From Bacilli bacterium (GTDB taxonomy: Bacteria > Bacillota_I > Bacilli_A > ML615J-28 > CAG-313), in NCBI GenBank assembly GCA_045589955.1, contig JAZNQD010000009.1:118814-182813 (forward strand): a stretch of 64,000 nt of DNA. Direction: 5' to 3'. Positions 3,157-25,884 of the stretch are shown here, piece after piece. A model generated the notes under the pieces. The model was not told where the DNA came from. It saw nothing but the letters and a program-made list of their open reading frames with translations, and searched no databases. Positions within the stretch are counted from its first letter, which is position 1, and each line of letters starts with the position of its first letter. The position numbers were made by a program, and so were the translations under genes.

Positions 3157-4059
3157 TTATTTATATTGTGTAAGCAAATCCCTATAACCACTACAAGACG
3201 GACCATCATAATCCAAATTTAAAAAGTAATTTGCCATACACTTTAATTTAGAAGTGCAGTTTCTACAAATTTTATCTCGCTTTTTTTCCATTTCTATAAA
3301 ATAGTTATTAATTTCGTCCAAATTATCCATCTCACGCAAAGAAAAATTATTATTTTCAAAGGTTTGTACTGCGAATTTATCATTTGGAGTCATATACAAC
3401 GTTTTAACATTATAATTATCTATATTTAAAATACCTTCTAATTGTAATTTATTTTGAAAAGCAAACTTCATTTTATGAGATAATCTTAAAAACGTTCGTA
3501 CAACTTCTTCGTATTCATCATAGCCCTTAAATTTATACCTAGTATGAATTGTTTGATGAAAAGGTACAATTTCCCAAGATTTTATTTTTAGGATATTTAA
3601 TTGCTCAATAATAGCACTCTGGTCAGTTTTACAAGATATATCTAAAGATTTTACATTTATTATTTTACCCGTATCAACAGCAGCTTTAATATTTGAAAAA
3701 ACTTGTTGTTTAAATGGACTATAATCATTAAAGTTGTATTTAACATTAATAATATCACAGTTATTGATTATGCCCTTTTTAAAATTAATAAAATTAGTTT
3801 CAACAATAATTTTTTTGCAATGTATCTTTAAAATATTATAAAGCATCTCAAAATATAAATCTGAAAGTAAAGCTATTTCACCACCAGATACTTTAATTTG
3901 AGCAATATCATATTTTCGACTGATACTTGATAAACTTTCATCTAACCAAGATAAACTCATTGTATTTTGGTTTTGTTTTTCGTGACTATATAAACAAAAA
4001 CCGCAATTTTGATTACAACGATAAAGAGGAATAAGATTTACTCTAATTTGAGGTTTCAT
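3157..4059 (-). CDS. radical SAM protein with SPASM-like C-terminal Cys cluster; paralog of 23573..24481
   Basis: CNQNCGFC (CxxxCxxC) near the N-terminus, SGGEIALL glycine motif. C-terminus CRNCTSKLKC...CSGYRDLL aligns with ...CHACKYYNKC...CSGLYNLL of the 23573 ORF. Track start at 4065 is TTG; ATG at 4059 has SD GGAGA. Confidence 0.7.
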   Translation of the reverse strand: MKPQIRVNLIPLYRCNQNCGFCLYSHEKQNQNTMSLSWLDESLSSISRKYDIAQIKVSGGEIALLSDLYFEMLYNILKIHCKKIIVETNFINFKKGIINNCDIINVKYNFNDYSPFKQQVFSNIKAAVDTGKIINVKSLDISCKTDQSAIIEQLNILKIKSWEIVPFHQTIHTRYKFKGYDEYEEVVRTFLRLSHKMKFAFQNKLQLEGILNIDNYNVKTLYMTPNDKFAVQTFENNNFSLREMDNLDEINNYFIEMEKKRDKICRNCTSKLKCMANYFLNLDYDGPSCSGYRDLLTQYK

Positions 4060-4061
4060 AT

Positions 4062-4634
4062 TCAATCTCCAAAAATCATAGTTAATTTTTTAGCCAAGTT
4101 ATCTGCTGCTTTATACGCTTTTTCGCCGAACTCTTTAGTTTTTATAATAAACAATCTAGCTTGCGGATCAGACTTATCCAAATTGATTTCATACCATATA
4201 TTCTTATCTAAGAAACGACCTAATTTCTCTACATAAGATATATTTTCAACAATGAATGATACCCACAATTCTTCTTTGCCATGTCCGCAACAACTTCCTT
4301 TTGTTGTAATCCCTGGAATTAAATTTAAACTTTTTACCAAAGAGACTACTTCCGAATCTAATTCAGTAATAGGATAGTCTATATATACATCTATACCACT
4401 AAACAAATCTACATACATAGCGGTATTAAGCATATCTATACTAGTAAGCTCTTTAACGATATGTTCTGGATTAGCTTCAACGCTATACCGAGGATTACCA
4501 TCTTCTATGAAGAATAAAGTATTATCGAAACTAATCAAGCCTTGTTTTTTAGTAGATATTATTTGACCAGCCGCAAAAACTTCACCTGTTTCACGCCAAC
4601 TTAGCTTTATCCAATCACCTTCACTATAAATCAT
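4062..4634 (-). CDS. hypothetical protein
   Basis: ORF inside the radical-SAM operon. Track start at 4664 is TTG; the first ATG (MIYSEGDW) is at 4634. Confidence 0.4.
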   Translation of the reverse strand: MIYSEGDWIKLSWRETGEVFAAGQIISTKKQGLISFDNTLFFIEDGNPRYSVEANPEHIVKELTSIDMLNTAMYVDLFSGIDVYIDYPITELDSEVVSLVKSLNLIPGITTKGSCCGHGKEELWVSFIVENISYVEKLGRFLDKNIWYEINLDKSDPQARLFIIKTKEFGEKAYKAADNLAKKLTMIFGD

Positions 4635-6237
4635 TACGTACCACCCATTTACTATTAAATACAACTCTATCCATATGTGGAGTACGTTTTAAAAAGGCTA
4701 TTGCTTGTTCTGGTGTTTCTATAATCGGCTCATTCTTACCATTAAATGATGTATTAATTAAGCAAGGAATACCAGTCGCTCTATAAAACGCCATTAAAAG
4801 TGAATATAATTCTGGATTTTGCTCTTTTTCTAAACACTGTGGTCTTGTAGTCATATCGATATGACAAACTGCACTTATTTTGCGTTGCCATTCTGGTCTA
4901 ATCTTTAAAGTACGTAGCATAAATTCTGTTAAATCTTTAGATGGTGTATCAAAAACCATATCAAATAATTCAGCCGGTACAATAGGAGCTAAAGGTCTCC
5001 AGTTTTCACGATGCTTAACATAATTGTTGATTACATACAAAGCATCTCTATCCGCCGGATTTGCTAAAATAGAACGATGACCTAAAGCACGCGGACCGAT
5101 TTCGGAACCACCTTGAAACCAACCAACTACCTTACTATTACGCAATGCTAATACCAATTCGTTTTCATCATAAGCATCTGGACTTTTTTCACAAGCTGCC
5201 AAAATTTCTTCATCAGAATACGTTTGACCGACATAAGAATTTTTTAAACGTACATTGTTAATTTTATCGCCATATTTTAAAGCAGCCGAAAAAGCGTGTC
5301 CCGCTGCAACCCCGGCATCATGTGGAGCAGGTCCAGCAAATACATTTTTAAATAATCCAGATTCTACTACTAGATTATTACCTATACAGTTTTGAATACA
5401 ACCACCTGATAAAATTAAATTTTCTTCATTAGTTAATTCTTTGGCATATTTAACTACTTCCATAAATATTTCATTATAGTTTTCTTGAATAGTAGCTGCC
5501 ATATCAATATAATATAAAATATTACATTCATCTGCTGTTCTGAGAGTATATGGATAAAAATTACGTTTTAAATAATATTGCATGTTTAAAGAAGCATCTT
5601 CATTAACAATATTCGTAAAATTAGCTATTATTTCACCATTTTCCCAACGTAAAACTCTAACAGGTGTAGGTCTACCATATGAAGATAAACCCATAAATTT
5701 ACCTTCACTAAATTCACCCAAATCCGCCATTGCAACTGAAGCACTATAATACATTTTACCAAGAGACACACCCTCTGTGTATTTCTTAAGTATTTTTATC
5801 TCATTGTCTTTACAATGTGCAATAGTAATACCATCTTTACCGTCACCGTTACCATCAACAATTACCGCAACAGCACTATCAAAACCACTTTGAAAAAACG
5901 AATCACAAACATGTCCCATGTGATGATCGTAATAATAAAATTCTGGAATTTTTTTACAATTAGGGTCAATTATATCTACCACTCGTTTCGCAAACCAATC
6001 ACGTACTCTTGCTTCATGTGGTATAGCAATTACATCGATATCATCTAACGTTAAATTATTGTCTTTTAAGATTTTTTGTACAGCTAATCGTGGAAATTGT
6101 TCACCAACAGAATGCTTTAATCTATTTAAACGCTCTTCTTCTAAATTAGCGATTAATTCCCCGTCTATTACTAGTGCTGCCGAAGCATCATGATTTTGTG
6201 GACAATCAAGACTACCGCTTATTCCTAATATTTTCAT
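4624..6237 (-). CDS. carbamoyltransferase (NodU/CmcH/TobZ family)
   Basis: N-terminus ILGISGSLDCPQNHDASAALVIDGEL...EERLNRLKH matches the NodU/CmcH N-terminal Kae1-like signature (LGIS..HDsAAAL..dG...EER..R.KH). C-terminal ENWRPLAPIV and SFNGKNEPII match the CmcH C-domain. ATG at 6237 has SD AAGGGGG; the track start at 6255 is TTG. Confidence 0.7.
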   Translation of the reverse strand: MKILGISGSLDCPQNHDASAALVIDGELIANLEEERLNRLKHSVGEQFPRLAVQKILKDNNLTLDDIDVIAIPHEARVRDWFAKRVVDIIDPNCKKIPEFYYYDHHMGHVCDSFFQSGFDSAVAVIVDGNGDGKDGITIAHCKDNEIKILKKYTEGVSLGKMYYSASVAMADLGEFSEGKFMGLSSYGRPTPVRVLRWENGEIIANFTNIVNEDASLNMQYYLKRNFYPYTLRTADECNILYYIDMAATIQENYNEIFMEVVKYAKELTNEENLILSGGCIQNCIGNNLVVESGLFKNVFAGPAPHDAGVAAGHAFSAALKYGDKINNVRLKNSYVGQTYSDEEILAACEKSPDAYDENELVLALRNSKVVGWFQGGSEIGPRALGHRSILANPADRDALYVINNYVKHRENWRPLAPIVPAELFDMVFDTPSKDLTEFMLRTLKIRPEWQRKISAVCHIDMTTRPQCLEKEQNPELYSLLMAFYRATGIPCLINTSFNGKNEPIIETPEQAIAFLKRTPHMDRVVFNSKWVVRNDL

Positions 6238-6259
6238 AATACCCCCTTTAAACAATCTT

Positions 6260-7219
6260 TTAAATATACATTTCTTGAATCATTTTTTTATCACACAACA
6301 TACACGCAGGTGAATCTGAATACGATGCATATATATCATTATGTCCGCATGGTAAATCTGTAAAAGGCTCATCTTCTTCAGACTCATGTAAGGTTTCTTT
6401 ATTACGTATAAATTTACGATTTCTTTTTGTTTCTAAATTATAATTTTTACGTACTTCTTCTGCTCGTAAATCTGTACTAATTAGCTTTTCGTATTCACCT
6501 ATACCTTCTTGCTCATAAAATTTTCTTAAAAACTTCAAAAACAATTTACGACTAGGGAAGAATGGTCCAAGCACTTTATTTATTTCAGCATTTTCTAAAT
6601 GTTGTAATCCTGTCGGTTTAACCGGATTTTTCAAAAAAATCGTTGTATGATATTTTTCTCTGAAATCTTTAAATTTGAGTTTACCATCTAAGTATTCATT
6701 TATATAAGCTTCAGTTAAAATACTAGTGGTATTAATACTAACTTCAGGATATTCAGCATGTAATTTAGCTAAATGATATTCCCAAGTTTCAAACATTTTC
6801 TCAGTGTGAAATCTTCCAAAAGTATCGTATGAAGTCAAAACCCAAACATTGGCTTTATCATCTATTCTATCTAAAGTTTCATATAAATGTTTTTGATCTC
6901 CGATTAATAAAGAAGCATTTAACCATATTTTCTTTATATATTTTTTATTAAGCATATCATTTGATACATCAATCATTTCCATGAATTTATTGTAAACAGC
7001 TTCTGTATTTAATTGTCCTTGAAAGAAGTCTCCTCCAATAAAACCTAAAACTTCATGCTCATCTGGTTTAAATTCTCTTATTTCATCAATGGCTGTTTGT
7101 AAAGATTGTAATTTTAACTTTTCAGCTGTATGTAAATTATCATTGCCCAATGTACAAAAAGTACACTTACAATTACATTCTCTCCACAATTCATATTGTA
7201 ACTGTTTACTCATTGGCAT
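6260..7219 (-). CDS. radical SAM protein, family 1 (ELW..CNxKCxFC type)
   Basis: ELWRECNCKCTFC (CxxxCxxC), FIGGDFFQGQLNTEAV glycine motif, C-terminal CGH...C..CD cluster. Paralog of the 10759, 7760 and 13542 ORFs. Confidence 0.75.
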   Translation of the reverse strand: MPMSKQLQYELWRECNCKCTFCTLGNDNLHTAEKLKLQSLQTAIDEIREFKPDEHEVLGFIGGDFFQGQLNTEAVYNKFMEMIDVSNDMLNKKYIKKIWLNASLLIGDQKHLYETLDRIDDKANVWVLTSYDTFGRFHTEKMFETWEYHLAKLHAEYPEVSINTTSILTEAYINEYLDGKLKFKDFREKYHTTIFLKNPVKPTGLQHLENAEINKVLGPFFPSRKLFLKFLRKFYEQEGIGEYEKLISTDLRAEEVRKNYNLETKRNRKFIRNKETLHESEEDEPFTDLPCGHNDIYASYSDSPACMLCDKKMIQEMYI

Positions 7220-7763
7220 CTTCTTTCAATTTAATATTTATAAAATTACCTTTTTCAAAATCTTCCGTGTACATAATGCTATCAATAGTATTTGGAACCT
7301 TTTCTTTTACAACTACGCCTAAATAATCATAAACCGTTGTACTAGCTTCTTCACGCTCAGCATTTACTACCTCTAAATAACCATTCGCATTACATTCTAA
7401 GAAAATTTCAGCAAGCTTTGTATCTTTTTTAATAATTAATTCCGACGCAGTTAAATTCTGAATAAACAAACAAATTGTATCACCATCATAACAGCATCCA
7501 CCTTTAATTATATACTTTGTAGGAATAGCCACATCTTCCTCGGTATCAGATTCACCAAAAGAAACGGCTTGTCCATATTTACCTAAATACAATTCATTTT
7601 CAATATCTAAGCGCATTTTAGTATCAAAGTAAACACCTTCTCTTGCGTTTAAATGGATATCTTGTTTGGCATATAATTGTTTTCTGCTAGAATCTTCGTC
7701 TAAGCATTCATTAGATAAATATACTAAGTCTGAATCACCAAATCTAAACATCTGATCTATCAT
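7206..7763 (-). CDS. hypothetical protein
   Basis: 185 aa. ATGA overlap with the upstream gene. No motif recognised. Confidence 0.45.
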   Translation of the reverse strand: MIDQMFRFGDSDLVYLSNECLDEDSSRKQLYAKQDIHLNAREGVYFDTKMRLDIENELYLGKYGQAVSFGESDTEEDVAIPTKYIIKGGCCYDGDTICLFIQNLTASELIIKKDTKLAEIFLECNANGYLEVVNAEREEASTTVYDYLGVVVKEKVPNTIDSIMYTEDFEKGNFINIKLKEDANE

Positions 7764-8686
7764 AAATAAGCATCCCTATCTAAATTATTTAAATCACATA
7801 ATACACACTTATCGCTGTCAGCATAGCATTTATATAAGATACTGTGTCCGCATTTTTCATTTATTACTTCTTTACCGTCAGATAATACCGGTTGAGCTGT
7901 TAAATCTGCAGTGTCTCTATCTTGTAAACCAGTATATTTAAACGTACAAGAATTTTTAGTAGATTGTAAAAAGTTATAATAGACTTCACTACAATTTGTT
8001 CTTAAATACTTCATAAATTCCAAAAAATCTACACGTTTGAAATTAAAATCTGTCAATTTAAAGCCTGTTTTTATGGGATGCGGATACAAAAATGTTAAAA
8101 TATTACCAGGGATAAATTCTTTCGTAAACTGATTTACTTCAAATTTACCTTCTTTCCAAGCATCGATTAAATATTGAGTAAGAATCATTTGAACGCCTAC
8201 TCTGTAATTATATCTTTTATGGAAATCATTAATATTATTTAAACACAATAACCTAGATTCCTCATCTTTAAAGCGATATTTTAAATCATACGAAAAGTTA
8301 ATATCTACCTTATCAATACCAACTGCATCCACAATCCTATCAACAACTCTATATAAAAACGTTGGATCATACAAACCATTGGTAACAGTTGAGTACTTAC
8401 AATATGGATTTGGGGAAACTTTTAATACTTTTTCAATAATGATATCAATTAACTCAATAAAAGAATCTTGTAATTTTTTATCAGTAATATAATAAAGCTC
8501 ACCACCAAGTAAAGATATACCGTTCGAGAATTTATCTTTAAAATCAATGTAGTTAATATTTTCTTTTATTTTATCTAATAGTACAAACTGTTTCTTTTTT
8601 GAATACGGAATTCTATCTGCACGTAAACAAAACTTACAGGCATTACAACAATTAGACCACACTGAATATTGTATCATATTAGACAT
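7760..8686 (-). CDS. radical SAM protein, family 1
   Basis: SVWSNCCNACKFC, LLGGELYY, C-terminal CGHSILYKCYADSDKCVLCD. SD GAGAG upstream. Confidence 0.75.
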   Translation of the reverse strand: MSNMIQYSVWSNCCNACKFCLRADRIPYSKKKQFVLLDKIKENINYIDFKDKFSNGISLLGGELYYITDKKLQDSFIELIDIIIEKVLKVSPNPYCKYSTVTNGLYDPTFLYRVVDRIVDAVGIDKVDINFSYDLKYRFKDEESRLLCLNNINDFHKRYNYRVGVQMILTQYLIDAWKEGKFEVNQFTKEFIPGNILTFLYPHPIKTGFKLTDFNFKRVDFLEFMKYLRTNCSEVYYNFLQSTKNSCTFKYTGLQDRDTADLTAQPVLSDGKEVINEKCGHSILYKCYADSDKCVLCDLNNLDRDAYL

Positions 8687-8688
8687 TA

Positions 8689-9711
8689 TTATTCTCTCAT
8701 TCTGTTTATAGCCAAATTCTTATTTATAATTTTTAACAATAGTTTTAAACCTTCTAAAGCCTTTTCTTTTGGGTGTCTAACAAATTCTTGATAACGAATA
8801 CGAATAAAGCCCATATAATTATCATGTTCACTCACACGAATTTTGTAACTATCAAGTTTGTCCCATTCGGCTTGTGTATATTTCATACCTTTAGTTTCAA
8901 TAGAAAAAATGTGGTCAACCGTTTGTGAATATAATCTAAACACTGAAGTATCTGCCACCAATTTACTGAAATACTGTATCATTATATTTTTAAATAGACT
9001 CATCTTATAACGATTTTGTAAAATGATATCCAAACGTCTAAGATATTCTTTGGCCCAATTATACGCTTTAATACCATAACCGTCTTCTTTAGTTATCATC
9101 ATTCCCATATCGTATTCAGGTACTAAAGAATGGGCAGTATATAAAACATAATCGTAAATTGAATAATCACGAGGTAACAAAAACATACCATGTACGTCGT
9201 CAATCATTATTTTGAAATTTACATTGTGTTCTTCTAATTCTTTTTTTAACTCAACATAAAAGTTTTGAGGTGTTATTTCACCAGTAGATAGCTGTGTACC
9301 AATAATATATACAAATACTTTTTTATAACCTTTTGTTTTTTGTACGATTTCTTTTGTCTTATATGAACGAATATCCTGTTCTGATTGTACAAATAACACA
9401 TTCTTACAATTTTCTAAGCATTTACGTACTGAACCATGCTCATATTGAGTAGAAATCACTAAGGTATCATCATCAACTTCTCTTTCAAATACTTGTTCGA
9501 TTAATGCGGTTCCACTATCATCAAATACCAAGTTTCTATCATGTATAGATACATTAGCAAATGGCATTCTGTTAAAATATTCTTGACACAAAGCCAAATA
9601 TTGCTCATCAGAAACAATTTCTGGTTCACCAGTTCTGCCTATACCTAGAAGTTCATTTTCTTCTTCACTAAACGGTTGAAAATCCAAATACCATTTAATC
9701 AATTCATCCAT
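8689..9711 (-). CDS. PLP-fold (class V aminotransferase / cysteine desulfurase-like) paralog A
   Basis: Motif string IIGTQLSTGEITP ... IMIDDVHGMF ... DYVLYTAHS resembles the fold-type-I pattern h..ETGhi.P ... hDavQs.G ... D.hs.SgHK (recalled from memory). The Schiff-base Lys position reads S. Track start is GTG at 9720; ATG at 9711 has SD GAAGGTG. Confidence 0.35.
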   Translation of the reverse strand: MDELIKWYLDFQPFSEEENELLGIGRTGEPEIVSDEQYLALCQEYFNRMPFANVSIHDRNLVFDDSGTALIEQVFEREVDDDTLVISTQYEHGSVRKCLENCKNVLFVQSEQDIRSYKTKEIVQKTKGYKKVFVYIIGTQLSTGEITPQNFYVELKKELEEHNVNFKIMIDDVHGMFLLPRDYSIYDYVLYTAHSLVPEYDMGMMITKEDGYGIKAYNWAKEYLRRLDIILQNRYKMSLFKNIMIQYFSKLVADTSVFRLYSQTVDHIFSIETKGMKYTQAEWDKLDSYKIRVSEHDNYMGFIRIRYQEFVRHPKEKALEGLKLLLKIINKNLAINRMRE

Positions 9712-9712
9712 A

Positions 9713-10759
9713 TCAGTCACCTTCTACAACTTGTTGTATAAAATCATCAGTTAAACTACTAGTCAAAGCTTTATCGATAATTTTTAAGCACTTAGGCAAC
9801 AAAGAATCATTATTTATAAACCAATGACTACGTAAAGAAATAAAACCTTCCCCATCAGTATCTGTTGTAATCAATAAATTTATTTTATTACACAATGCAA
9901 CACTATTTTCAGAAATATTAAACTCTTTTAAACGTAAATAAAATATATAAGGTGCAACTAATTCTCGTGATATTTTATCTAAGTTTTTTATATATTTACT
10001 GTAATATTGAATGCACAATGCTCTAAACAAATTAAATTTATTTGCACGTGATATCACAATTTCTAACCGTTTTAAATACAATTCACCCCAATTATAAGCG
10101 TTTATCCCTAGAAATTGTTGCTTACTAATTAGAATTCCCATATCAAAACCCATACAAACAGCATGAGCAGTACCTATTACGTAATCAAATAAAGTATAAT
10201 CACGTGGAATTAAAAACATACCTTGTACATCATCAAGTATTAGAATATGTTGTACATCATTTTTAATAAAAAGATTTTTCAACTCTACAAAAAACTCTTG
10301 AGGTGTTATTTCACCGGTAGCATTTTGAGTCCCAATTATATAAACAAATACTTTTTTATATTGTTTAATGCTCTGCTGTATTTTATGAAAATTAAATGCT
10401 CGAATATCATTGTATTGATTTATTTCCAAAACATTTTTATACTCATTTATAATATTTTTAACACTTGGATGTTCAGCATTGCTAGTAATAATTAAAGTAT
10501 CTTCATCGACATATTTTGCAAATAATTTCTTTATAAACGTAGTAGCAGATACCTCGAAAGTCAAAAAACTATTATTGATCGTACAATTTGAAGCAAGCAT
10601 CTTGTCAAAAAATCTCATAGATACACTTTTAAAAGCTTCGGTATTAAATTTTGGCTCGATATAACTTTTTTCAGACAAGTCATGTGATAAATTTGTCTTA
10701 ACGATTTCTTTATCAACATCACTTAAAGGTAAATATGTATTCCACCAGTTTAAAAGCAT
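9713..10759 (-). CDS. PLP-fold-like paralog B
   Basis: Paralog of 8689..9711 (IIGTQNATGEITP ... ILDDVQGMF ... DYVIGTAHA). Track start at 10762 is TTG; ATG at 10759 overlaps the upstream stop (TGATG). Confidence 0.35.
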   Translation of the reverse strand: MLLNWWNTYLPLSDVDKEIVKTNLSHDLSEKSYIEPKFNTEAFKSVSMRFFDKMLASNCTINNSFLTFEVSATTFIKKLFAKYVDEDTLIITSNAEHPSVKNIINEYKNVLEINQYNDIRAFNFHKIQQSIKQYKKVFVYIIGTQNATGEITPQEFFVELKNLFIKNDVQHILILDDVQGMFLIPRDYTLFDYVIGTAHAVCMGFDMGILISKQQFLGINAYNWGELYLKRLEIVISRANKFNLFRALCIQYYSKYIKNLDKISRELVAPYIFYLRLKEFNISENSVALCNKINLLITTDTDGEGFISLRSHWFINNDSLLPKCLKIIDKALTSSLTDDFIQQVVEGD

Positions 10760-11706
10760 CAAATCTCTAAGTCCCGTATCATTTGTTTATCGCATATCGC
10801 ACATTTATTACTATCAATATATGCACTATAAACAGATAAATGCCCACAATCCATGATATAATCTATTCTCGGATTATATGTTTCTGTACCATTTTCTTTA
10901 TTTCTATTTACTACTGCATCATGTTCTTCATACTCACAAATTAATGTATCTGCACGATATTGAATATTGAACAATTTGTCATAAAAAGCTAAACCTTCTT
11001 CTCGCTTTACTTTCTTTAAAAAACGTAAGAAGGCATCACGTTTCGGAAAAAAGTTACCGAGTACTTGATTTGTATGCTCTTTTGAAATATACATACCTTC
11101 TGGACCAGCACACAATTTAACAAACATCGAAGTATTATATGTTGACATTAAATTTTTAAATGAAAATTCATCTGCCAGATATTTGTCTATTAAATCGCCG
11201 GTTATAATTGTAGTTGTATTAAACTTTATTTTGGGATAGAGTTTTCCTATATTCAACATATGATATGACCAATTATCTTCCATTTTTTTAGTATGAAAGC
11301 GTCCCATTGTATCATATGAGGTTAATAACCAAAAATTATCCTGATAATCTTTGAAAATATCTAAAGTGGTATATAAATCAGTTTGTTCGCCTATTGTAAG
11401 TGTTGCATATAGCCAAGTTGTTTTTATGTAACCAGCTTTCATCAAATCGGCGGTCGTTTGCATTAATTCAAAAAATTTATTCTTTACAGCCTCTGTATTT
11501 AACTGTCCTTGAAAAAATTCACCGCCAATAAAAGCAATAGTATCATACTCCTTATAAATATCTAAATTTTTTATTGTAGATAAGGCTTTTTCTAAATTAT
11601 ACAGCTTTGTTTCTTCCGAAGTAAATCTATTTGTATTACCTAAGTAACAAAAAGTACATTTAGAGTTACATTCTTTCCATAATTCAAATTGTAATTGCTT
11701 TCCCAT
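10759..11706 (-). CDS. radical SAM protein, family 1
   Basis: ELWKECNSKCTFC, FIGGEFFQGQLNTEAV, C-terminal DCGHLSVYSAYIDSNKCAICD. Confidence 0.75.
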   Translation of the reverse strand: MGKQLQFELWKECNSKCTFCYLGNTNRFTSEETKLYNLEKALSTIKNLDIYKEYDTIAFIGGEFFQGQLNTEAVKNKFFELMQTTADLMKAGYIKTTWLYATLTIGEQTDLYTTLDIFKDYQDNFWLLTSYDTMGRFHTKKMEDNWSYHMLNIGKLYPKIKFNTTTIITGDLIDKYLADEFSFKNLMSTYNTSMFVKLCAGPEGMYISKEHTNQVLGNFFPKRDAFLRFLKKVKREEGLAFYDKLFNIQYRADTLICEYEEHDAVVNRNKENGTETYNPRIDYIMDCGHLSVYSAYIDSNKCAICDKQMIRDLEI

Positions 11707-11708
11707 AT

Positions 11709-12626
11709 TTAATTTCCATATAATTTAAAAAACATTTGTGCAACATCATACATCTTGTTATTAGAATCTATGAAGCCTATATCATATTTTTTAGTTTTAT
11801 CACTTAATTCACATCTACCGTCGCCGCTTCGTCTATCTTCTGCTACTCTAACTTTACCATTTTCTATAAAAAACAATGTGTTAGACCTCAATTCCATAGA
11901 CAAAAAAGAATCTCTATTAATCAAATCTTTATGAATAGCTTTCTTTAAAAATTTCAAAAAAGTTTCTTTTTTAGGAAAAAACCCCGGCAAATCCTTTTCA
12001 CAAGCATATTTATCTACATAATATAAGCCAGAAGAAGGCTCTATGTAATCAACTGAAGTATTAAACACTTCTTTAAAGGCTTTTAAATCAAATTCATCAT
12101 TTAATACAGCATTTAAAAACCATTCTGTTAAAATAATTTCAGTATGAAGACGTAACTCTGGATAGTTATCTTTTAAAAATAACATATTACGCTTCCACAA
12201 TTCTTTATGTTCTTGAGTTTTAAATCTATACTTGACATCAAAAGAGGTACATAATACAATTTTATCTAATAATTGTATTTTACGTAAATAATCCAAAAAT
12301 GGTATTAAATCAATATTAATATCGTAGATTAATGCCGCGGTTATGTATATCTTTGAAAAATTAAGTTTAGATACATCATAAAATAAATTATAAAAAACAG
12401 GCTTTATAAGTGGATCTAATTCGCCATTGAAAAATTCACCACCAATAAAGCCTATCTCATCGTGTTTTATGATTTGTAACTCTTTTAATTTAGCCGTAAT
12501 AAACTGTAAAGATTGTAACTTATCAATTTTAGGTTGACCTTTATTACAACAAAATTTACAACCTATCTTACAATCTTTCCATAATTCAAATTGAACAAAT
12601 GTATTTTCATTTTTAAAATTAGTCAT
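11709..12626 (-). CDS. radical SAM protein, family 1b (no C-terminal Cys cluster)
   Basis: ELWKDCKIGCKFC, FIGGEFFNGEL. The C-terminus lacks the CGH..C..CD motif. Close paralog of 12619..13542. The printed sequence differs from the track by 1 nt near the start. Confidence 0.7.
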   Translation of the reverse strand: MTNFKNENTFVQFELWKDCKIGCKFCCNKGQPKIDKLQSLQFITAKLKELQIIKHDEIGFIGGEFFNGELDPLIKPVFYNLFYDVSKLNFSKIYITAALIYDINIDLIPFLDYLRKIQLLDKIVLCTSFDVKYRFKTQEHKELWKRNMLFLKDNYPELRLHTEIILTEWFLNAVLNDEFDLKAFKEVFNTSVDYIEPSSGLYYVDKYACEKDLPGFFPKKETFLKFLKKAIHKDLINRDSFLSMELRSNTLFFIENGKVRVAEDRRSGDGRCELSDKTKKYDIGFIDSNNKMYDVAQMFFKLYGN

Positions 12627-13542
12627 TTACAAGCTTACACAATTCAGTTGCTATATCTTCCATAGAATCTTCGGAATCAATAAAACCTAATTCATATTTT
12701 TTAGATGTATCCCTACATTTTACTCTAAAACCTGGTTCACGTCTATCTTCATAACAAACGAAATCCCCACAATCTAAGTGATATATTCTACTTGCTCTGA
12801 TTTGATACGAAATTAAGCAGCTTAAGTCTATTTCTTTGTTTTTTAAACCAGCTTTCTTTAAAAATTCAATAAAACTTTTCTTTCTTGGAAAAAATCCAGG
12901 ACAAGCTTTTTCACAGTCCGCTTTTGTATTATAGTACATACCAGAAGAAGGTTCGATATAATCTACACGTGTTCTATATTTTTCACAAAACTCTTTAATA
13001 CTAAACGTATCATTTAATACTGCATCAATAAAATGTTGCGTCATAATAGTTTCAACATGTGTCTTTAAATCAGGATAATCTTTTAATAAAGCAAGCATAT
13101 TACTTTCCCATAACTCTTGCTTACCAGGTATATTAAAACGATATTTTAAATCATAAGAAGTACACAATAAAACCTTATCCATTATATTAATTTTACGCAA
13201 ATAATCTAAAAATGGCAATAAATACGGTTTCATATCATAAATTAAAGATGTAGCAACATAAATTTTATTAAAATGCATTCCTGCTAATTTATCTATTAAC
13301 TTATAAAATAATGCTCTAACTTCTTCATTTTCGATTTGATTATCAAATATTTCTCCACCGATAATACCTACTTCTTCATAATCAAATACTTCTGGATCAT
13401 CTAATTTATTTAACGTAAACTCTAATGCCCATTTTTTATCAACGGACATTTGACAACGCTCTGAACAAAATTTACAGCCATTTCTACAATCTTGCCATAG
13501 CTGATATTGAATAAACTTATTAGGTGCAATATATCTTTCCAT
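12619..13542 (-). CDS. radical SAM protein, family 1b
   Basis: QLWQDCRNGCKFC, IIGGEIFDNQ, YIEPSSGMYY region shared with the 11709 ORF. TAATG start/stop overlap. Confidence 0.7.
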   Translation of the reverse strand: MERYIAPNKFIQYQLWQDCRNGCKFCSERCQMSVDKKWALEFTLNKLDDPEVFDYEEVGIIGGEIFDNQIENEEVRALFYKLIDKLAGMHFNKIYVATSLIYDMKPYLLPFLDYLRKINIMDKVLLCTSYDLKYRFNIPGKQELWESNMLALLKDYPDLKTHVETIMTQHFIDAVLNDTFSIKEFCEKYRTRVDYIEPSSGMYYNTKADCEKACPGFFPRKKSFIEFLKKAGLKNKEIDLSCLISYQIRASRIYHLDCGDFVCYEDRREPGFRVKCRDTSKKYELGFIDSEDSMEDIATELCKLVND

Positions 13543-14408
13543 TACGCATACTCACTAAATACATCTAATAAATCACAACAGAAGCAGGTATTTTTTTCTG
13601 AATATCTTTTAAAGTTAACAGAATGCCCACAATCAGACATTGCGCAACTACAAAACTGAAATTCGTTATCTTTATACATATAAAGCCATTTTTCTTGTGT
13701 TATGGTCATGTTTGGCACATATTTAGCTAGATAGCCAGGTAAATCTAAATCTACGCGTTTAAGGGCTTTAAAAATGGCATTACGAGGAGCAGTTAATTCA
13801 GAATCTAAAACTATATAAGGTATTAAATTAATCCAACATTTATATTCAGCTGTAAATTCACTTAATTTAAAATTGCCATCTAAAATTTCTTGACAAACCT
13901 TTTTTGTAAGAATTGTATTTGTAACTATATTACATTTAGGATATACTCGATTAATCCATTTTAAATTAGATAGCATCAATTGTCTATCATCTTCAGTTCT
14001 GAATCTTCCTTCTAAATCATATGATGTAGTAAATTTAAGTCTATCAAATAAATTACATTTGGATATCATATTAAGCATGGAATTTAAACCGGTTAAATCT
14101 TTATAGATTAAGTTAGTATTTATATATAACAAATCTATAATACCAACTTCCATCAATCCAACGATTTGATTAAAAAATTCTTCTAAAGCATTGAAATCAC
14201 TAGGTTTATCAAATATCTCACCACCACAAATGAGTATATGACTACCTTTTATGAATTTATCACTATCTATAAATGATAAAACTTCATTTAAAATAAATTT
14301 TCTTTTTTCTTGATTGTATAAACGGGGTTTTTCGCGTTGGAAACAAAACTTACAATTATTATTACAGTTATCCCAAACGAGAAATTCATAAATCTTTTTA
14401 TATTTCAC
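13542..14408 (-). CDS. radical SAM protein, family 1
   Basis: LVWDNCNNNCKFC, ICGGEIFDKP, C-terminal CAMSDCGHSVNF...CFCCD. Start is GTG at 14408, preceded by GGGGGG. Confidence 0.7.
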   Translation of the reverse strand: MKYKKIYEFLVWDNCNNNCKFCFQREKPRLYNQEKRKFILNEVLSFIDSDKFIKGSHILICGGEIFDKPSDFNALEEFFNQIVGLMEVGIIDLLYINTNLIYKDLTGLNSMLNMISKCNLFDRLKFTTSYDLEGRFRTEDDRQLMLSNLKWINRVYPKCNIVTNTILTKKVCQEILDGNFKLSEFTAEYKCWINLIPYIVLDSELTAPRNAIFKALKRVDLDLPGYLAKYVPNMTITQEKWLYMYKDNEFQFCSCAMSDCGHSVNFKRYSEKNTCFCCDLLDVFSEYA

Positions 14409-14428: not shown

Positions 14429-15001
14429 TTAATCCGCGGATAATGTAACCGAATATCTACAAGGTTGAATTCTAAACGTATGTTTTATTACATTCATCAA
14501 ACTATTTATAATATCATTTACATCTTGAGCAGTATCTAAACGAAAATATAAATCTATATCGGCATCTAATATCTTAATAGAAGGATAAGTTGTATTGCCA
14601 GTGTAATAAACTAAATATTTATTAGTGTTAAATTGACTAACTGTAAAACAGAATTTGGTACTACAAAAAGAAACCATGTCGTTTATAAAATTAATAAATT
14701 CGCGTGGTGGAATATTCGTATTTAGTTTTGTATCCACTTTTATCGTTTTTAAGAAATTAGTCATATCAGTATCAATAGTGGCACCGGTAACTTTAGCAAT
14801 AGATTTTGTAATAGTGTGTGTACAATATCCGTTTACACCAGCTTTTTTACCGTTATTAGAAATAATCACTTTATTACTATATCCAGATTTAAATTCTGCT
14901 GGTAAAGAATTATATTTATTATCTACGTTTTGACAATTGGTTTTAGCGTAGTTTTTTACCAGATTAACTATTGTATTGTATGTAATATTTCCTATTGGCA
15001 T
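14429..15001 (-). CDS. family-B paralog (untailed) of the Ser-tailed proteins
   Basis: Starts MPIGNITYNTIVNLVKNYAKTNCQNVD...LPAEFKSGYS; paralogous to the 16988 ORF and to the N-terminal cores of the 15002 and 17529 ORFs. Its ATG directly abuts the stop of 15002..15691 (TAAATG). Confidence 0.6.
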   Translation of the reverse strand: MPIGNITYNTIVNLVKNYAKTNCQNVDNKYNSLPAEFKSGYSNKVIISNNGKKAGVNGYCTHTITKSIAKVTGATIDTDMTNFLKTIKVDTKLNTNIPPREFINFINDMVSFCSTKFCFTVSQFNTNKYLVYYTGNTTYPSIKILDADIDLYFRLDTAQDVNDIINSLMNVIKHTFRIQPCRYSVTLSAD

Positions 15002-15691
15002 TTAAATATCCATATAAGCAATAAATGTAGATGAACTAGAAGAACAGCTTGAGCTTGATGAAGATGAAGATGAGGAACTAGAAGAACTCGAACTTGAACT
15101 AGAATAAGTTAAAAGAGTATTTGCATAGTGAATGTTCGATGTGTTGTTAACAGCGGCAAGTAACTCATTTACACTAGTTTGTATTTCTGTTGCACTAAAA
15201 TCTATATCATCATGACGTAAAGACACTGTTGAAAAATTACTAGCGTCATCATCGTAAAAGATAAATGTTCCTGCCCCAAAACTATTTGTAACAGCAATCA
15301 ACTTAACAGCCAAAAAAGATGCAAAGTTATTATAAAAATTCATAATACCTTTGAAAGACACAATTTCAGTCGGTTTAGTTGCAATTCCACGTAATTTCAA
15401 AAAGGAATTAAGTTGATTTTTTACAGTAGATGTAGAAACAACTTGCAACTTTGGATCATTAACTTGAGAATGTTGAATTAATGTCTTGGTTGTACGGGTA
15501 AAGTTACTATTTCTACCACCTATGACAAAAGCCACGGCCGTTGTTTTATTATTCCAACTATATCCGTGTTGTAATTGTTTTGGTACATCACTTCTAAACT
15601 TATCAATATTACAGCATTTACTCAAAATATATGATTGAGCACTATCTAATAAATCTTGATAAGTAATTGTATTATTGCTCTTTATCGCCAT
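15002..15691 (-). CDS. family-A protein with C-terminal poly-Ser/Cys tail (putative modification substrate)
   Basis: 229 aa ending ...[37 protein letters not shown] GAGGG upstream. N-terminal core shares the ITY...C.N.D...GYS pattern with the family. Confidence 0.7.
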   Translation of the reverse strand: [229 protein letters not shown]

Positions 15692-16400
15692 TAAAAAGTC
15701 CCTCTAAAAAGCCATCTAATAAAGTTACAGAGACAATACTCTTGCTTTGTAAAGCAATGATACATTCAATAGCATTATCTAAGTAAACACATTCTTCTGT
15801 AGAAAACTTTTCGGATACAGAAAAAATACCAGAAAGAGTTAACAAATCAGTTGACATGAAAATTGTACGATAAATCTTAGGTAATGGAATATGCGTATCT
15901 AACGGTGTATAAGTTGTTTTATTATAAGATTTAAACAACGAAATGAAATAAATACTTAACTGACGAATAAATTTGTTTAAACTAGATTGTAATTCAAGTT
16001 TTAAATCTAACAAATCTTCAATAGATGATACATAAATATTTTCATCATCAAAAAAGTCATCTTCTAAAGTATTATACAATTTAATCAAGTTAATAATATT
16101 CAAAATCATCAATGGATCACACAAATCTTCACGATTCATTGACATTTCGAAAATTCTAACCAAAGTTTCAAGTTCAACACCTTTAAGGAATAATTTAACA
16201 TTATTTCTTGCAAGTTCCGTTAACTCTGTTTCTAAACAATAAAGCTTTTCTAAAAATGGTATAATATCCATAACTTCAACGTATTTATCTACTCTAATTT
16301 CAATAAATTCATTTTCAGCAAAAGAAATTCCTTTAGTTCCTTCAACTAAAGTTTTAATATCATCACGAATTGCTTCATAGTTACGTAAATTTTCAGTCAT
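15672..16400 (-). CDS. hypothetical protein
   Basis: 242 aa. Strong SD AAGGAG. Confidence 0.5.
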   Translation of the reverse strand: MTENLRNYEAIRDDIKTLVEGTKGISFAENEFIEIRVDKYVEVMDIIPFLEKLYCLETELTELARNNVKLFLKGVELETLVRIFEMSMNREDLCDPLMILNIINLIKLYNTLEDDFFDDENIYVSSIEDLLDLKLELQSSLNKFIRQLSIYFISLFKSYNKTTYTPLDTHIPLPKIYRTIFMSTDLLTLSGIFSVSEKFSTEECVYLDNAIECIIALQSKSIVSVTLLDGFLEGLFNGDKEQ

Positions 16401-16987: not shown

Positions 16988-17527
16988 TTATGCCAATGTT
17001 ACGCTATATGTACAAACATACGGTCTAATATTTTGTCTTACCACACTTGTTATAAAATTAATTAAAGTTGTAATATCTGCATCATCAATAAGTCGATAAG
17101 TGGTAGTCGTAGTAATATTCTTTAGTGATGAATAAGTAGTATTTCCTGTTAGATATACCATGTAATTTGTAGTTGAATATTGACTAGCTGCTACTCCAAT
17201 TTTAGTACTACAGAATGAAATGATATCCTCAACGAAATTTAAAAATTCGTTTGCTACAATATTAGTATTTAGTTTATCATTTACCTTTATTGTCGTTAAA
17301 AAATTCGTCATATCTGTAGCAACTGTTGTACTAGCTACTTGAGATACGCCTTTTGAAATTGTAACTGTAGACTTAGCGTTTGTAGTGATTGTTGTTACTA
17401 CACTATATCCTGTTTTAAAACAAGCCGGTAAGTTAGCAATGGTTGTATCAAAATTCATACAATTTGCCAAGATCCAACTTTTAACGTGCTCAACTACAGT
17501 ATTATAAGTTATTGCACTAAGAGCCAT
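16988..17527 (-). CDS. family-B paralog (untailed)
   Basis: Starts MALSAITYNTVVEHVKSWILANCMNFD...LPACFKTGYS; paralog of 14429..15001. Follows the 17529 ORF with a one-base gap. Confidence 0.6.
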   Translation of the reverse strand: MALSAITYNTVVEHVKSWILANCMNFDTTIANLPACFKTGYSVVTTITTNAKSTVTISKGVSQVASTTVATDMTNFLTTIKVNDKLNTNIVANEFLNFVEDIISFCSTKIGVAASQYSTTNYMVYLTGNTTYSSLKNITTTTTYRLIDDADITTLINFITSVVRQNIRPYVCTYSVTLA

Positions 17528-17528
17528 T

Positions 17529-18209
17529 TTAGATATCCATATAAGCTATAAACGTAGAAGAACTAGAAGAACAACTTGAACTACTCGAGCTTGATGAAGA
17601 CGAAGAGCTAGAAGAAGAGCAACTTGAACTATAAGATAGCATTACGTTTACTAAGCGATGTTGAATTGGTTTATTGATACAGTTTAACAAATCAGTAAAT
17701 GATACCTTTATTTGATCAGCCGTAAAGTTTGCATCTGCTGGAGTTAAATTACTTAAAGTTGGAAAATTAGTTGCTTCACTATTATAGAAAACGTATTTAT
17801 TATTTGAATAAGCACTTGTTAAAAAAACTACTTTGGTTGCAATAAATGCCGAAACAACATTACAAAAAATCATTAAATTTTTAAATGAAATCAATTCGCC
17901 AGTATTATCTGCAATTCCATTTGAAGTAAGAAAAGAATTAAATTGAGAATTAACTGTAGAAGATGGTACTGCTTTTAAAATTGTATCGTTTACCGTAGCA
18001 GTAGCTGTTAATGTAAATGTACCTGTTGTACTATTACCCGTTACATATGATACTTCCTTACTAGCCACTTGCCAAGAACTATTATTTACAAAAGCACTAG
18101 GTAAACCAGATGGAAGTGCATCAATATTTTGACAAACCTTTTTAATCTGAGTTAATACAGCATCAACAGCGTCTTTATATTTAATCGTTTGTCCTGTTGC
18201 GAGAGACAT
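17529..18209 (-). CDS. family-A protein with C-terminal poly-Ser/Cys tail (putative modification substrate)
   Basis: 226 aa ending ...[37 protein letters not shown]. The last 14 residues are identical to those of 15002..15691. First gene of the minus-strand operon. Confidence 0.7.
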   Translation of the reverse strand: [226 protein letters not shown]

Positions 18210-18274: not shown

Positions 18275-18691
18275 ATGAATGAAAATCTAAAAAATAGAAG
18301 AAAATTAGCATATTACATAAACAAATGGGACGACATAAATCTACCATATCATGAAGATTACAAAAATATACCCGAACAAGTGATTTCTTTTTTCAAAACT
18401 GAATCTAACTTGGTATATCCGGCAAAGACAATCTTCGTAGCTATAATTTATGCTAAATGCTTGGAACAATACTTTGATGTGCCTTTTTATGAAAGTTTAG
18501 ATGATATCGAATTGTTATTTGATGACAAATATTTTAACAAGTATACATATTCTCAATTCAAAAATGAATATGATTATATACTAAGTACTCTAACAGATAT
18601 TTTAAACTATCCGGCAGCACAAAAAACGATAGACTATTTTAAAAAAGAGTTTCTCTATGGAATTGATTATAAAACCAACCGGTCGTTGTAA
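18275..18691 (+). CDS. hypothetical protein
   Basis: 138 aa. First gene of the plus-strand operon. Overlaps the next gene by 35 nt. Confidence 0.45.
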   Translation: MNENLKNRRKLAYYINKWDDINLPYHEDYKNIPEQVISFFKTESNLVYPAKTIFVAIIYAKCLEQYFDVPFYESLDDIELLFDDKYFNKYTYSQFKNEYDYILSTLTDILNYPAAQKTIDYFKKEFLYGIDYKTNRSL

Positions 18692-19613
18692 TTTTAATTG
18701 TAAATTTTGCAGTGCGAATTTATTAGATATTAAACACAGTACAACAGTTTCTACTCAATTAAAAACTGTTTTAAATACAATAAAACCTGATAATATTATT
18801 TTTACCGGTGGAGATCCATTACTTGTAAGTCCTGACTATTATAATGAAATCTTATCGCTTGGAAACTGGAATATTGCTTTTACTACCAATTTAAAAGATT
18901 TTTATTTAAATCCCACAAAATGGATATCACTGTTTAAAAATCCGAGAGTTGGCATAGGAACCTCTTTTCAATATGGAAACAAAAGATTATGGGATAACAA
19001 CGCTCCTTATACCGAAAAACTATTTATTGATGTTATGCAAAAATTTTATAATGAAATTGGATATACTCCTCCTTTTATTTCATTAATAGATACAGATAAC
19101 GAAGATAAAGCTTTGGACCATGTATACTTAGCTAAAAAATTAAATACAAAATGTAAACTTAACGGTACATTGCCTCTTGGTAAGTCAAAATGTTTTTATC
19201 CAACTTATAAAATGATAAAAATATGGTTAGAAATCAAAGACTTAGGTTTAGAAGAATATTTAGATACACAAATACAGTTTTATGAAGGGGGTTGTAATTT
19301 CAACACAAGCCTTTATTGTGAATCTACTATTCGTACATTTTGGTTAAACGAACATGGTGAAGTACAATATGGAAATTGTGAAGATTGTTCAACACTAGGG
19401 CAACGTATTCCTTTAGATAAAATCAGACCAATACCGGTAAAAAAACAAATTGAAATAAATGATACTATAAACGATAAATGTTGTTATTGTGAATTATTTA
19501 AATTGTGTAACGCTTGTCGTTCCTTACAACGCATAAATAAACAAACCCCCGAGCACTGTGAAGAAATGCTAAAATTAAAACCAAGAATAATAGAGGCAAA
19601 ATGGAAGATATAA
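18657..19613 (+). CDS. radical SAM / SPASM-like protein, family 2
   Basis: GRCNFNCKFC, FTGGDPLL, C-terminal CCYCELFKLCNACR Cys cluster. Confidence 0.75.
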   Translation: MELIIKPTGRCNFNCKFCSANLLDIKHSTTVSTQLKTVLNTIKPDNIIFTGGDPLLVSPDYYNEILSLGNWNIAFTTNLKDFYLNPTKWISLFKNPRVGIGTSFQYGNKRLWDNNAPYTEKLFIDVMQKFYNEIGYTPPFISLIDTDNEDKALDHVYLAKKLNTKCKLNGTLPLGKSKCFYPTYKMIKIWLEIKDLGLEEYLDTQIQFYEGGCNFNTSLYCESTIRTFWLNEHGEVQYGNCEDCSTLGQRIPLDKIRPIPVKKQIEINDTINDKCCYCELFKLCNACRSLQRINKQTPEHCEEMLKLKPRIIEAKWKI

Positions 19614-20401
19614 AGACATTATATGCTATCCCACATTATAATTGTAACTTAGCATGTCCACATTGTGATTTATTTAAAAAACAAACAAATTATGATGAAG
19701 AGCATTTTATGTATTCATTAAATAATGTAAAAGCAGAAGAAATCGTTTTGTTTGGTGGTGAACCTCTTTTATATAAAGACAAATTACTAAAAATACTACA
19801 AACAAATAAAATATCATCTATTTCAACAAATCTATTAAACATTGATTTAGATATCTTAAATAATCTAAAAAAATATAATATACACATAGCTACATCATGG
19901 AATAATATACGATTAAATAAACAACAATATATAACATGGATAAATAATATACATAAAATAAATATATATAATATTGACTGTATTGTACTTATAACTCTGA
20001 CGGATGATCTGATACACAATACTGAGAAACTGACTGATACGCTGACTGATTTAGATAAAACAAGAATAAGAGGTGTATTATTTGAACAACTATTGGATTA
20101 TTCTAAAGACCAAAGTTTTTATGAAAAAGTAGACACGTTCCTATGTAAGATATCCGAAAATTGGCAATATTCGTTCAAAAACTTAATTATTGACAAATTA
20201 AATACTTGGAATTGTGATTGTAAAAAAACATATACTCTCGAACCAACCGGAATAATCCGTAAAGGTTGTCCACAATATATTCAACCACAAATAGTCAATG
20301 AATGCTTATCATGTTCTTTAGCAAATATATGTAAACCTTGTCCGTTACAAAAGCACTGTTCTTTTCCTAAAAAATTATACGTGATGTTTAAAAATGCTTA
20401 A
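19601..20401 (+). CDS. radical SAM / SPASM-like protein, family 2
   Basis: HYNCNLACPHC, FGGEPLL, C-terminal CLSCSLANICKPCPLQKHC. Confidence 0.7.
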   Translation: MEDIKTLYAIPHYNCNLACPHCDLFKKQTNYDEEHFMYSLNNVKAEEIVLFGGEPLLYKDKLLKILQTNKISSISTNLLNIDLDILNNLKKYNIHIATSWNNIRLNKQQYITWINNIHKINIYNIDCIVLITLTDDLIHNTEKLTDTLTDLDKTRIRGVLFEQLLDYSKDQSFYEKVDTFLCKISENWQYSFKNLIIDKLNTWNCDCKKTYTLEPTGIIRKGCPQYIQPQIVNECLSCSLANICKPCPLQKHCSFPKKLYVMFKNA

Positions 20402-24481: not shown

Positions 24482-24487
24482 CAAGAG

Positions 24488-25882: not shown

Positions 25883-25884
25883 AT

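Follow-up and report, generated by a model that had tools for sequence, protein, structure and literature searches.

A 64,000-nucleotide stretch of contig JAZNQD010000009.1 (positions 118,814 to 182,813 of the forward strand), referred to here as the window, contains two neighboring open reading frames (ORFs), ORF A and ORF B, whose products represent a new variant, phage-only and lysine-less, of the NifS-like vitamin B6 fold. Enzymes that depend on pyridoxal phosphate (PLP) are recognized, in any textbook account, by a Schiff-base lysine. Judging from the aligned sequences, its loss is a property of the entire family and not a local mutation, and the cysteine on which desulfurases form a persulfide is missing as well. 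On balance, we favor the view that these proteins are lysine-independent subunits that bind a B6-type ligand non-covalently and form part of a phage radical S-adenosylmethionine (SAM) protein-maturation module. The two ORFs are as follows (aa, amino acids).

9713..10759, minus strand: ORF B, NifS/SufS-like fold-type-I protein without the Schiff-base lysine; 348 aa (ATG start, 10759)
8689..9711, minus strand: ORF A, paralog of ORF B; 340 aa (ATG start, 9711)

A first-pass annotation, made from the sequence alone, had placed two tandem paralogs here. Both were found on the minus strand, and an alignment of their products over 340 residues showed 35% identity (E = 2e-72). The ORF listing gave longer starts for both genes, with a TTG at 10762 for ORF B (9713..10762, 349 aa) and a GTG at 9720 for ORF A (8689..9720, 343 aa). 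The ATG codons at 10759 and 9711 are the probable true starts. Counted from its ATG, ORF A has the same length as P0049 (340 aa), and with the ATG starts, stop and start codons of neighboring genes overlap for both ORFs, which makes this part of the window a tightly packed operon. Residue numbers given below refer to the 349-aa form of ORF B and the 343-aa form of ORF A.

Fold and active-site residues of ORF A and ORF B

Single-sequence searches with ORF A and ORF B gave no match in Pfam (E ≤ 1), PHROGs, or the PDB sequences, and a profile search of the PDB sequences with the family found nothing. A search of the PDB sequences with P0098 returned just a marginal D-x-V-Q match to acetylornithine aminotransferase, which was discarded. 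When ORF B was used to query a collection of 5.8 billion proteins, 122 homologs were retrieved, all of them unnamed, and one had a precomputed Aminotran_5 match. The AlphaFold2 model of ORF B, computed from a 48-sequence alignment, had a predicted local distance difference test (pLDDT) score of 95.4 and a predicted template modeling (TM) score of 0.92. A Foldseek comparison of this model with the PDB gave 1,198 matches at E ≤ 1e-3; more than 1,100 were fold-type-I PLP enzymes, and so were all of the top ones. NifS/IscS cysteine desulfurases ranked best (4ixo, E = 2.4e-14; Helicobacter pylori NifS 5wt2, TM score of 0.62), and C-S lyases and PhnW came next. Among the viral models in BFVD, the best matches to ORF B were "NifS-like" with TM scores of ~0.6, and none was close. 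The model and the Foldseek matches fit the fold-type-I architecture, which is defined by a large alpha/beta domain containing a seven-stranded sheet and by a small C-terminal domain.

Matches to hidden Markov models (HMMs) were weaker. The SufS model TIGR01979 matched residues 83 to 218 of ORF B (E = 5e-6) with 25.6 bits versus a cutoff of 475, and the cysteine-desulfurase family model TIGR01977 matched ORF B with an E value of 3.5e-5, far below its cutoff, and ORF A with an E value of 0.03. Pfam Aminotran_5 (PF00266) gave weak matches in 3 of 48 family members (best E = 8.3e-6). The curated desulfurase thresholds of PF00266 and TIGR01979 were reached by neither ORF. Taken together, the Foldseek and HMM matches indicate that ORF A and ORF B are divergent fold-type-I members and that the class-V desulfurase group is nearest to them. 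Domain fusions that could suggest a function were looked for, and none were found.

The Escherichia coli IscS sequence, identical to that of PDB entry 1p3w, was used as the reference for locating the active-site residues. In this protein, K206 is the Schiff-base lysine, and H104 is the residue that stacks on the cofactor ring. D180 binds the pyridine N1, Q183 binds O3', and T76, S203, and H205 bind the phosphate. C328, carried by a mobile loop in the small domain, is the catalytic cysteine that forms the persulfide. An IscS-like profile of 18 sequences from viral contigs was aligned to the family profile using hhalign in local mode, resulting in an alignment of 145 columns that covered residues 62 to 214 of ORF B and 64 to 219 of IscS. 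In this alignment, T74 of ORF B corresponds to IscS T76, E97-H98 to E103-H104, D177 to D180, Q180 to Q183, T198 to S203, H200 to H205, and A201 to K206. None of 120 column-shuffled controls reached the real score (21.3 versus a maximum of 21.0) or the real length (145 versus a maximum of 76 columns). The topology of the model agrees with the alignment, with strand 171-177 ending in the Asp and strand 194-198 ending in the Thr, directly followed by "H-A"; the stretch that the SufS HMM matched also agrees with it. Because they align with IscS K206, Ala201 in ORF B and Ser198 in ORF A occupy the lysine position. The equivalent segments of the two ORFs are located as follows.

10160..10171, minus strand: T198-A199-H200-A201 of ORF B, equivalent to S203-G204-H205-K206 of IscS
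10160..10162, minus strand: Ala201 codon of ORF B, Schiff-base lysine position
9127..9138, minus strand: T195-A196-H197-S198 of ORF A, counterpart of TAHA in ORF B
9127..9129, minus strand: Ser198 codon of ORF A, Schiff-base lysine position
10214..10234, minus strand: DDVQGMF of ORF B (177-183), with D177 equivalent to IscS D180 and Q180 to IscS Q183
9181..9201, minus strand: DDVHGMF of ORF A (174-180; D174, H177), in which His replaces the Gln of the ORF B motif
10469..10474, minus strand: E97-H98 of ORF B, equivalent to IscS E103-H104
9436..9441, minus strand: same motif in ORF A, equivalent to E97-H98 of ORF B
10196..10207, minus strand: P186-R187-D188-Y189 of ORF B, family-specific motif in the loop that follows the Asp strand
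9163..9174, minus strand: same motif in ORF A, equivalent to PRDY of ORF B

Other approaches to the alignment were less productive. A two-sequence IscS/NFS1 profile produced a spurious 40-column alignment in hhalign and was replaced by the 18-sequence profile, and the global mode of hhalign gave no usable alignment between the family and the IscS profile. Only the E-H motif was recovered by hmmalign and hmmsearch when the family was compared with IscS. For the C-terminal domain alone, which is shorter in the family, no sequence alignment with IscS was obtained, and a PDB search for more diverse desulfurase sequences returned variants of one protein only.

Conservation was determined in an alignment of 271 family sequences, which diverge down to ~25% identity. 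The lysine position was occupied by Ala (160 sequences), Ser (80), Val (23), Asn (3), Cys (2), Thr (2), or Gly (1), and by Lys in none. D177 and H200 were each found in 270 sequences, T198 and Q/H180 in 268 each, H98 in 267, T/S74 in 260, and R311 in 259, and G209 was invariant (271/271). The positions corresponding to cofactor contacts (H98, D177, Q/H180, T198, and H200; 98 to 100%) are thus the best conserved in the family, and their near invariance argues against a decayed pocket. The PRDY motif that follows the Asp strand was also well conserved (R187, 256/271; Y189, 264/271). No other Lys column exceeded 79%, the best being K162, K137, and K214; the last of these aligns with IscS R219 and is located on a strand leading away from the active site. 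A relocated lysine is therefore unlikely. For Cys, no column exceeded 44%; the top column is unrelated to the persulfide loop, and there was none in the C-terminal domain.

These data bear on several statements of the first-pass annotation. The strings that it quoted, TGEITP (149-154 in ORF B and 146-151 in ORF A), DDV[HQ]GMF, and DYV..TAH[SA], are all present in both ORFs, and their conservation across 271 homologs shows that they are not chance occurrences. Its proposal of a PLP fold with Ser or Ala at the lysine position agrees with the structural matches and with the alignment to IscS: fold-type-I homology is present, and no lysine is conserved above 79% elsewhere in the family.

A jumbo-phage family and its gene module

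The window is DNA of an uncultivated giant (jumbo) phage. It is AT rich (GC content of ~28 to 30%) and contains as phage hallmark genes a portal, a head-maturation protease, a GroEL-like chaperonin, and an SbcC-like nuclease. A profile search with the family in 1.84 billion representative proteins retrieved 241 clusters (50% identity) at E ≤ 1e-3 and 213 at E ≤ 1e-10. There is no model for the family in Pfam, PHROG, or NCBIfam, and no family member was detected by blastn and tblastn in 50,697 GenBank phage records. Among 185,579 species genomes (one each), only two matches were obtained, both on contigs of metagenome-assembled genomes (MAGs) that carry the complete phage module. These contigs, L038 (CALAFU010000278.1) and L039 (CALBJM010000174.1), were binned as "Candidatus Melainabacteria" and "Erysipelotrichaceae" MAGs; their module encodes a poly-Ser protein along with four radical-SAM paralogs and has two NifS-like genes. 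Both contigs are near-identical to L036, a locus from IMG/VR, and probably come from phages and were mis-binned into bacterial MAGs. Contigs with family members measure up to 230 to 313 kb, and the family is confined to large contigs of uncultivated jumbo phages.

The copy number of the NifS-like gene varied: most phages had one copy, the window and L036 had two, and L020 had three. The key residues are the same in all copies. In ORF B numbering, the duplicates in the window differ in that the A type has H180, Y197, and S201 and the B type has Q180, G197, and A201. Given the variation in copy number, the tandem pair represents a lineage-specific duplication and does not define the module. An obligatory A/B heterodimer as a general rule was ruled out, since only one copy is present in most of the related phages.

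The gene context was analyzed in 19 related loci, or 20 when the window is included, by clustering ORFs into families. Four families make up the core, namely, the NifS-like family (20 of 20 loci), the radical-SAM family (19 loci), a 242-aa protein (17 loci), and a family of proteins with Ser/Cys tails (17 loci). The NifS-like gene was embedded among the same radical-SAM paralogs in 17 of the 19 related loci. Co-location with radical-SAM/SPASM maturases (17/19) and with a candidate precursor (17/20), as in modules for ribosomally synthesized and posttranslationally modified peptides (RiPPs), was thus observed in most loci. The NifS-like gene is a core part of what is a conserved gene module of jumbo phages.

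17529..18209 and 15002..15691, minus strand: poly-Ser/Cys-tailed proteins, head of operon
16988..17527 and 14429..15001, minus strand: tail-less paralogs, each directly after a tailed-protein gene
15672..16400, minus strand: 242-aa acidic protein without family match, kept in 17 of 20 loci

The members of the tailed-protein family have 180 to 280 aa, and one of each pair is tailed, whereas the neighboring paralog is tail-less. The Ser tail has a length of 20 to 40 residues, with 1 to 5 interspersed Cys residues, and ends in [FY]I[AVG]YM[DKEI][IL]. The two tailed proteins of the window have 1 or 2 Cys residues in the tail and share an identical C terminus, ...CSSSSSTFIAYMDI. Ser/Cys tails are conserved in 16 or more related phage loci, and their encoding by a mixture of Ser codons means that selection acts on the protein sequence and that the tail is not a microsatellite. 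A homolog search with the poly-Ser-tailed protein retrieved 6 sequences. Its AlphaFold2 model had a pLDDT score of 75 with a disordered tail, and no significant match to PDB structures was found. In terms of gene order, precursor-like genes are followed by maturases that have the NifS-like gene among them, an arrangement that resembles a RiPP cluster. The tailed proteins are candidate substrates of the radical-SAM array.

An HMM of the radical-SAM paralogs matched 14 ORFs of the window, the number given in the first-pass annotation, arranged in two divergent operons (3157..14408, minus strand; 18657..27862, plus strand). Arrays in the module comprise ~5 to 14 of these small paralogs, which have ~300 aa and no recognizable leader-binding domain. 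The 14 paralogs of the window form three subgroups according to their C termini, which are SPASM/twitch-like, have the pattern CGH...Y..Y.DS..C..CD, or contain no Cys. The four paralogs directly upstream of ORF B carry CxxxCxxC at the N terminus together with a GGE motif, and some have a C-terminal CGH...C..C. The product of 26882..27862 scored above the SPASM domain cutoff and matched the peptide-maturase models DynA, PapB, and anSME.

13542..14408, 12619..13542, 11709..12626, and 10759..11706, minus strand: four radical-SAM paralogs directly upstream of ORF B
7760..8686 and 6260..7219, minus strand: two radical-SAM paralogs downstream of ORF A
7206..7763, minus strand: 185-aa ORF between the two downstream radical-SAM genes
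4624..6255, minus strand: NodU/CmcH-type carbamoyltransferase (Carbam_trans_N/C, E = 1e-56), operon end
4062..4664, minus strand: 200-aa protein adjoining the carbamoyltransferase gene, conserved in 8 loci
3157..4065, minus strand: SPASM-like radical-SAM protein, operon end
18657.., 19601.., 20394.., 21389.., 22500.., 23573.., and 26882..27862, plus strand: radical-SAM paralogs of the divergent operon, with SPASM/twitch-like C termini
34656..36302, plus strand: GroEL-like chaperonin (PHROG 5725, E = 2e-127), structural genes nearby
39251..41047: portal, structural gene of the window
47730..50519: head protease, structural gene of the window

The carbamoyltransferase gene is accessory and only occasionally present, with examples in the window and L020; the enzyme might O-carbamoylate hydroxyls such as that of Ser. 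The product of 7206..7763 had no Pfam or PHROG match, and none of the 19 related loci encodes a homolog of it; a by-eye resemblance to a dUTPase-like beta-barrel motif was dropped for want of Pfam or PHROG support. No member of the IscU, NifU, SufE, SufU, or TusA Pfam families was found among the window ORFs from 421 to 26889. As a separate observation, the module in L001 contains a Cys/Met-metabolism PLP enzyme (PF01053; 12624..13670, plus strand), in which the lysine is present (SLAKYVSGH). A PF01053 enzyme within the module was seen in L001 and L034 only, and an S-AdoMet lyase is encoded near this gene in L001 (19421..20140, minus strand).

Comparison with known B6-fold proteins and RiPP systems

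To our knowledge, natural lysine-less exceptions are few and comprise ColD, E1, and SpnQ, which depend on pyridoxamine phosphate (PMP), and the inactive IscS of Archaeoglobus fulgidus (AfIscS). The phage family shares with NifS, IscS, and SufS the overall fold, the GxT phosphate loop (T74), the ring-stacking E-H pair, D-x-x-Q, and, from the S-x-H-K motif, S/T-x-H. Unlike these proteins, it has Ala, Ser, or Val in place of the Schiff-base lysine, lacks the persulfide Cys, is ~55 residues shorter than IscS with an unalignable C-terminal domain, contains the PRDY motif, and occurs in phages only.

AfIscS is naturally lysine-less, has no desulfurase activity, and is a structural partner of IscU, in which its loop cysteine ligates the [2Fe-2S] cluster of the adjacent IscU (PMC7585200). 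This protein, with a Lys-to-Asp replacement, was among the Foldseek matches of ORF B (PDB entries 4eb5 and 4hvk; D199K variant, 4r5f), and it is a close homolog of E. coli IscS (E = 1e-103). The phage family resembles AfIscS in having a desulfurase fold minus the Schiff-base lysine, but it differs from it in the absence of a conserved Cys and of an IscU neighbor, in having Ala or Ser instead of Asp, and in forming a separate deep clade.

ColD, E1, and SpnQ are true enzymes of fold type I that lack the catalytic lysine; they belong to the sugar-aminotransferase (DegT/DnrJ/EryC1) family and act on nucleotide-sugar substrates (PMC8987622). In these enzymes, a catalytic His replaces the lysine, and non-covalently bound PMP condenses with the substrate carbonyl, which E1 and SpnQ couple to Fe-S/one-electron chemistry (PMC8987622). 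The phage family, in contrast, has Ala, Ser, or Val at this position, and no DegT-type Pfam match was obtained for 48 members and the two ORFs.

The module as a whole is similar to radical-SAM/SPASM RiPP clusters (PapB, DynA, anSME, and HxsB/C) in that a repeat-like C-terminal region follows a carrier domain and in that precursor-type genes head an operon of radical-SAM maturases. With its His-Xaa-Ser repeat substrates, the HXS system sets a precedent for radical-SAM maturation of a repeat effector (PMC13128918). The phage module differs from the described RiPP classes in its poly-Ser/Cys cores, its folded ~190-aa leader with a tail-less paralog, the presence of 5 to 14 paralogous maturases, the lysine-less NifS-like accessory protein, and the fact that it is phage encoded. 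A literature search found no description of this module of poly-Ser/Cys, radical-SAM, and NifS-like proteins.

Possible roles of the family and their implications

Because the pocket residues are the best conserved despite a divergence down to ~25% identity, the pocket most likely still holds a B6-type cofactor or a similar ligand. The two ORFs belong to a phage-restricted and deeply diverged clade of NifS/IscS/SufS-like proteins that has lost the Schiff-base lysine and the persulfide cysteine and in which strong selection has preserved the pocket for the ring and the phosphate of pyridoxal or pyridoxamine phosphate. In the reading that we favor, the ligand, either PMP or a preformed cofactor-substrate imine, would be held non-covalently, and the small side chain of Ala, Ser, or Val would leave space at C4'. 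The NifS-like proteins would act together with the radical-SAM enzymes in the maturation of the Ser/Cys tails, possibly, by analogy with ColD/E1, by handling a carbonyl or amine intermediate generated by the latter; a PMP role of this type appears to be the most attractive mechanism. The duplication in the window may allow A and B to pair as a heterodimer or may assign one paralog to each of the two tailed precursors. Considerably more tentative is the idea that the B6 partner and the radical-SAM enzymes form a new pathway that turns the poly-Ser/Cys tails into a heavily modified product, for example by PMP capture of formylglycine-type carbonyls made by radical-SAM enzymes or by radical chemistry on a cofactor-bound amine.

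Several points weigh against the role of a non-covalent B6-type subunit. The hhalign statistics, taken alone, are weak (E = 0.058). There is no obvious substitute base in the family, which has Ala, Ser, or Val where ColD and E1 have His. PLP forms no aldimine with internal, peptide-bound Ser or Cys, so that the link to the tails is genomic only, and the tailed proteins are themselves putative substrates. As the C-terminal domain could not be aligned by sequence, the assignment of R311 as the carboxylate-binding Arg is just topological. In addition, the lysine-less AfIscS illustrates that a desulfurase homolog can be a non-catalytic partner (PMC7585200).

The main rival explanation, which we regard as possible but less probable, builds on this precedent of a lysine-less homolog with a structural role (PMC7585200). 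It holds that a NifS-like dimer without B6 is a non-catalytic scaffold that recruits or stabilizes the radical-SAM enzymes or presents the ~190-aa domain to them, similar to a RiPP recognition element or a chaperone. The family-wide absence of the lysine and the catalytic cysteine is consistent with a scaffold, as are the shortness of the radical-SAM paralogs (~300 aa), in which no leader-binding domain is recognizable, and the inability of PLP chemistry to act on internal peptide residues. However, the polar cofactor contacts (D177, H98, T198, H200, and Q/H180) are conserved in at least 98% of the sequences, which is unexpected for a ligand-free pocket, and AfIscS retains the cysteine and an adjacent IscU, neither of which was found for the phage family.

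A further role, which we consider rather improbable, is that of lysine-independent B6 enzymes whose substrate is a free small molecule and not the tails, with radical-PLP chemistry split over two polypeptides. An amino acid or a compound derived from SAM or methionine may be bound as an external aldimine from which the radical-SAM partner abstracts a hydrogen atom; lysine 2,3-aminomutase is an example of a radical-PLP enzyme. The conserved pocket, the tight coupling to radical-SAM genes, and R311 (259/271), which is located topologically where the Arg that binds the alpha-carboxylate is expected, favor this explanation, and the PF01053 enzyme in the L001 module hints at free amino-acid chemistry. 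The equivalence of R311, however, is unsupported by any sequence alignment, and the radical-PLP enzymes known to us keep the lysine as an anchor of the cofactor.

The first-pass annotation had also considered the two proteins as Fe-S sulfur donors for the 14 radical-SAM enzymes, and although NifS, IscS, and SufS are their nearest structural and HMM relatives and 14 such enzymes represent a high demand for Fe-S clusters, we give this role very little credence, since all 271 sequences have another residue in place of the lysine that serves as Schiff base and general base, Cys conservation stays within 44% in every column, the proteins are ~55 residues shorter than IscS with a C-terminal domain that cannot be aligned with the Cys-loop region, no IscU, NifU, SufE, or SufU was detected nearby, and the score with the SufS model (25.6 bits) is far from its cutoff (475). 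With both the Schiff-base lysine and the persulfide cysteine lost, the phage NifS-like proteins are thus neither cysteine desulfurases nor sulfur suppliers for Fe-S clusters.

With this phage family, ~240 clusters (50% identity) join the lysine-less exceptions of the B6 fold. The residues that contact the cofactor are the best conserved although the lysine and the cysteine are gone, which suggests that the pocket has been retained for a non-canonical use. Besides posing a puzzle for enzymology, the family can conveniently serve as a genomic marker of an apparently undescribed module. If the more tentative reading proves true, in which the tails are converted into a heavily modified product, a lysine-free B6 partner of radical-SAM enzymes would represent a new enzyme logic in a new jumbo-phage pathway.

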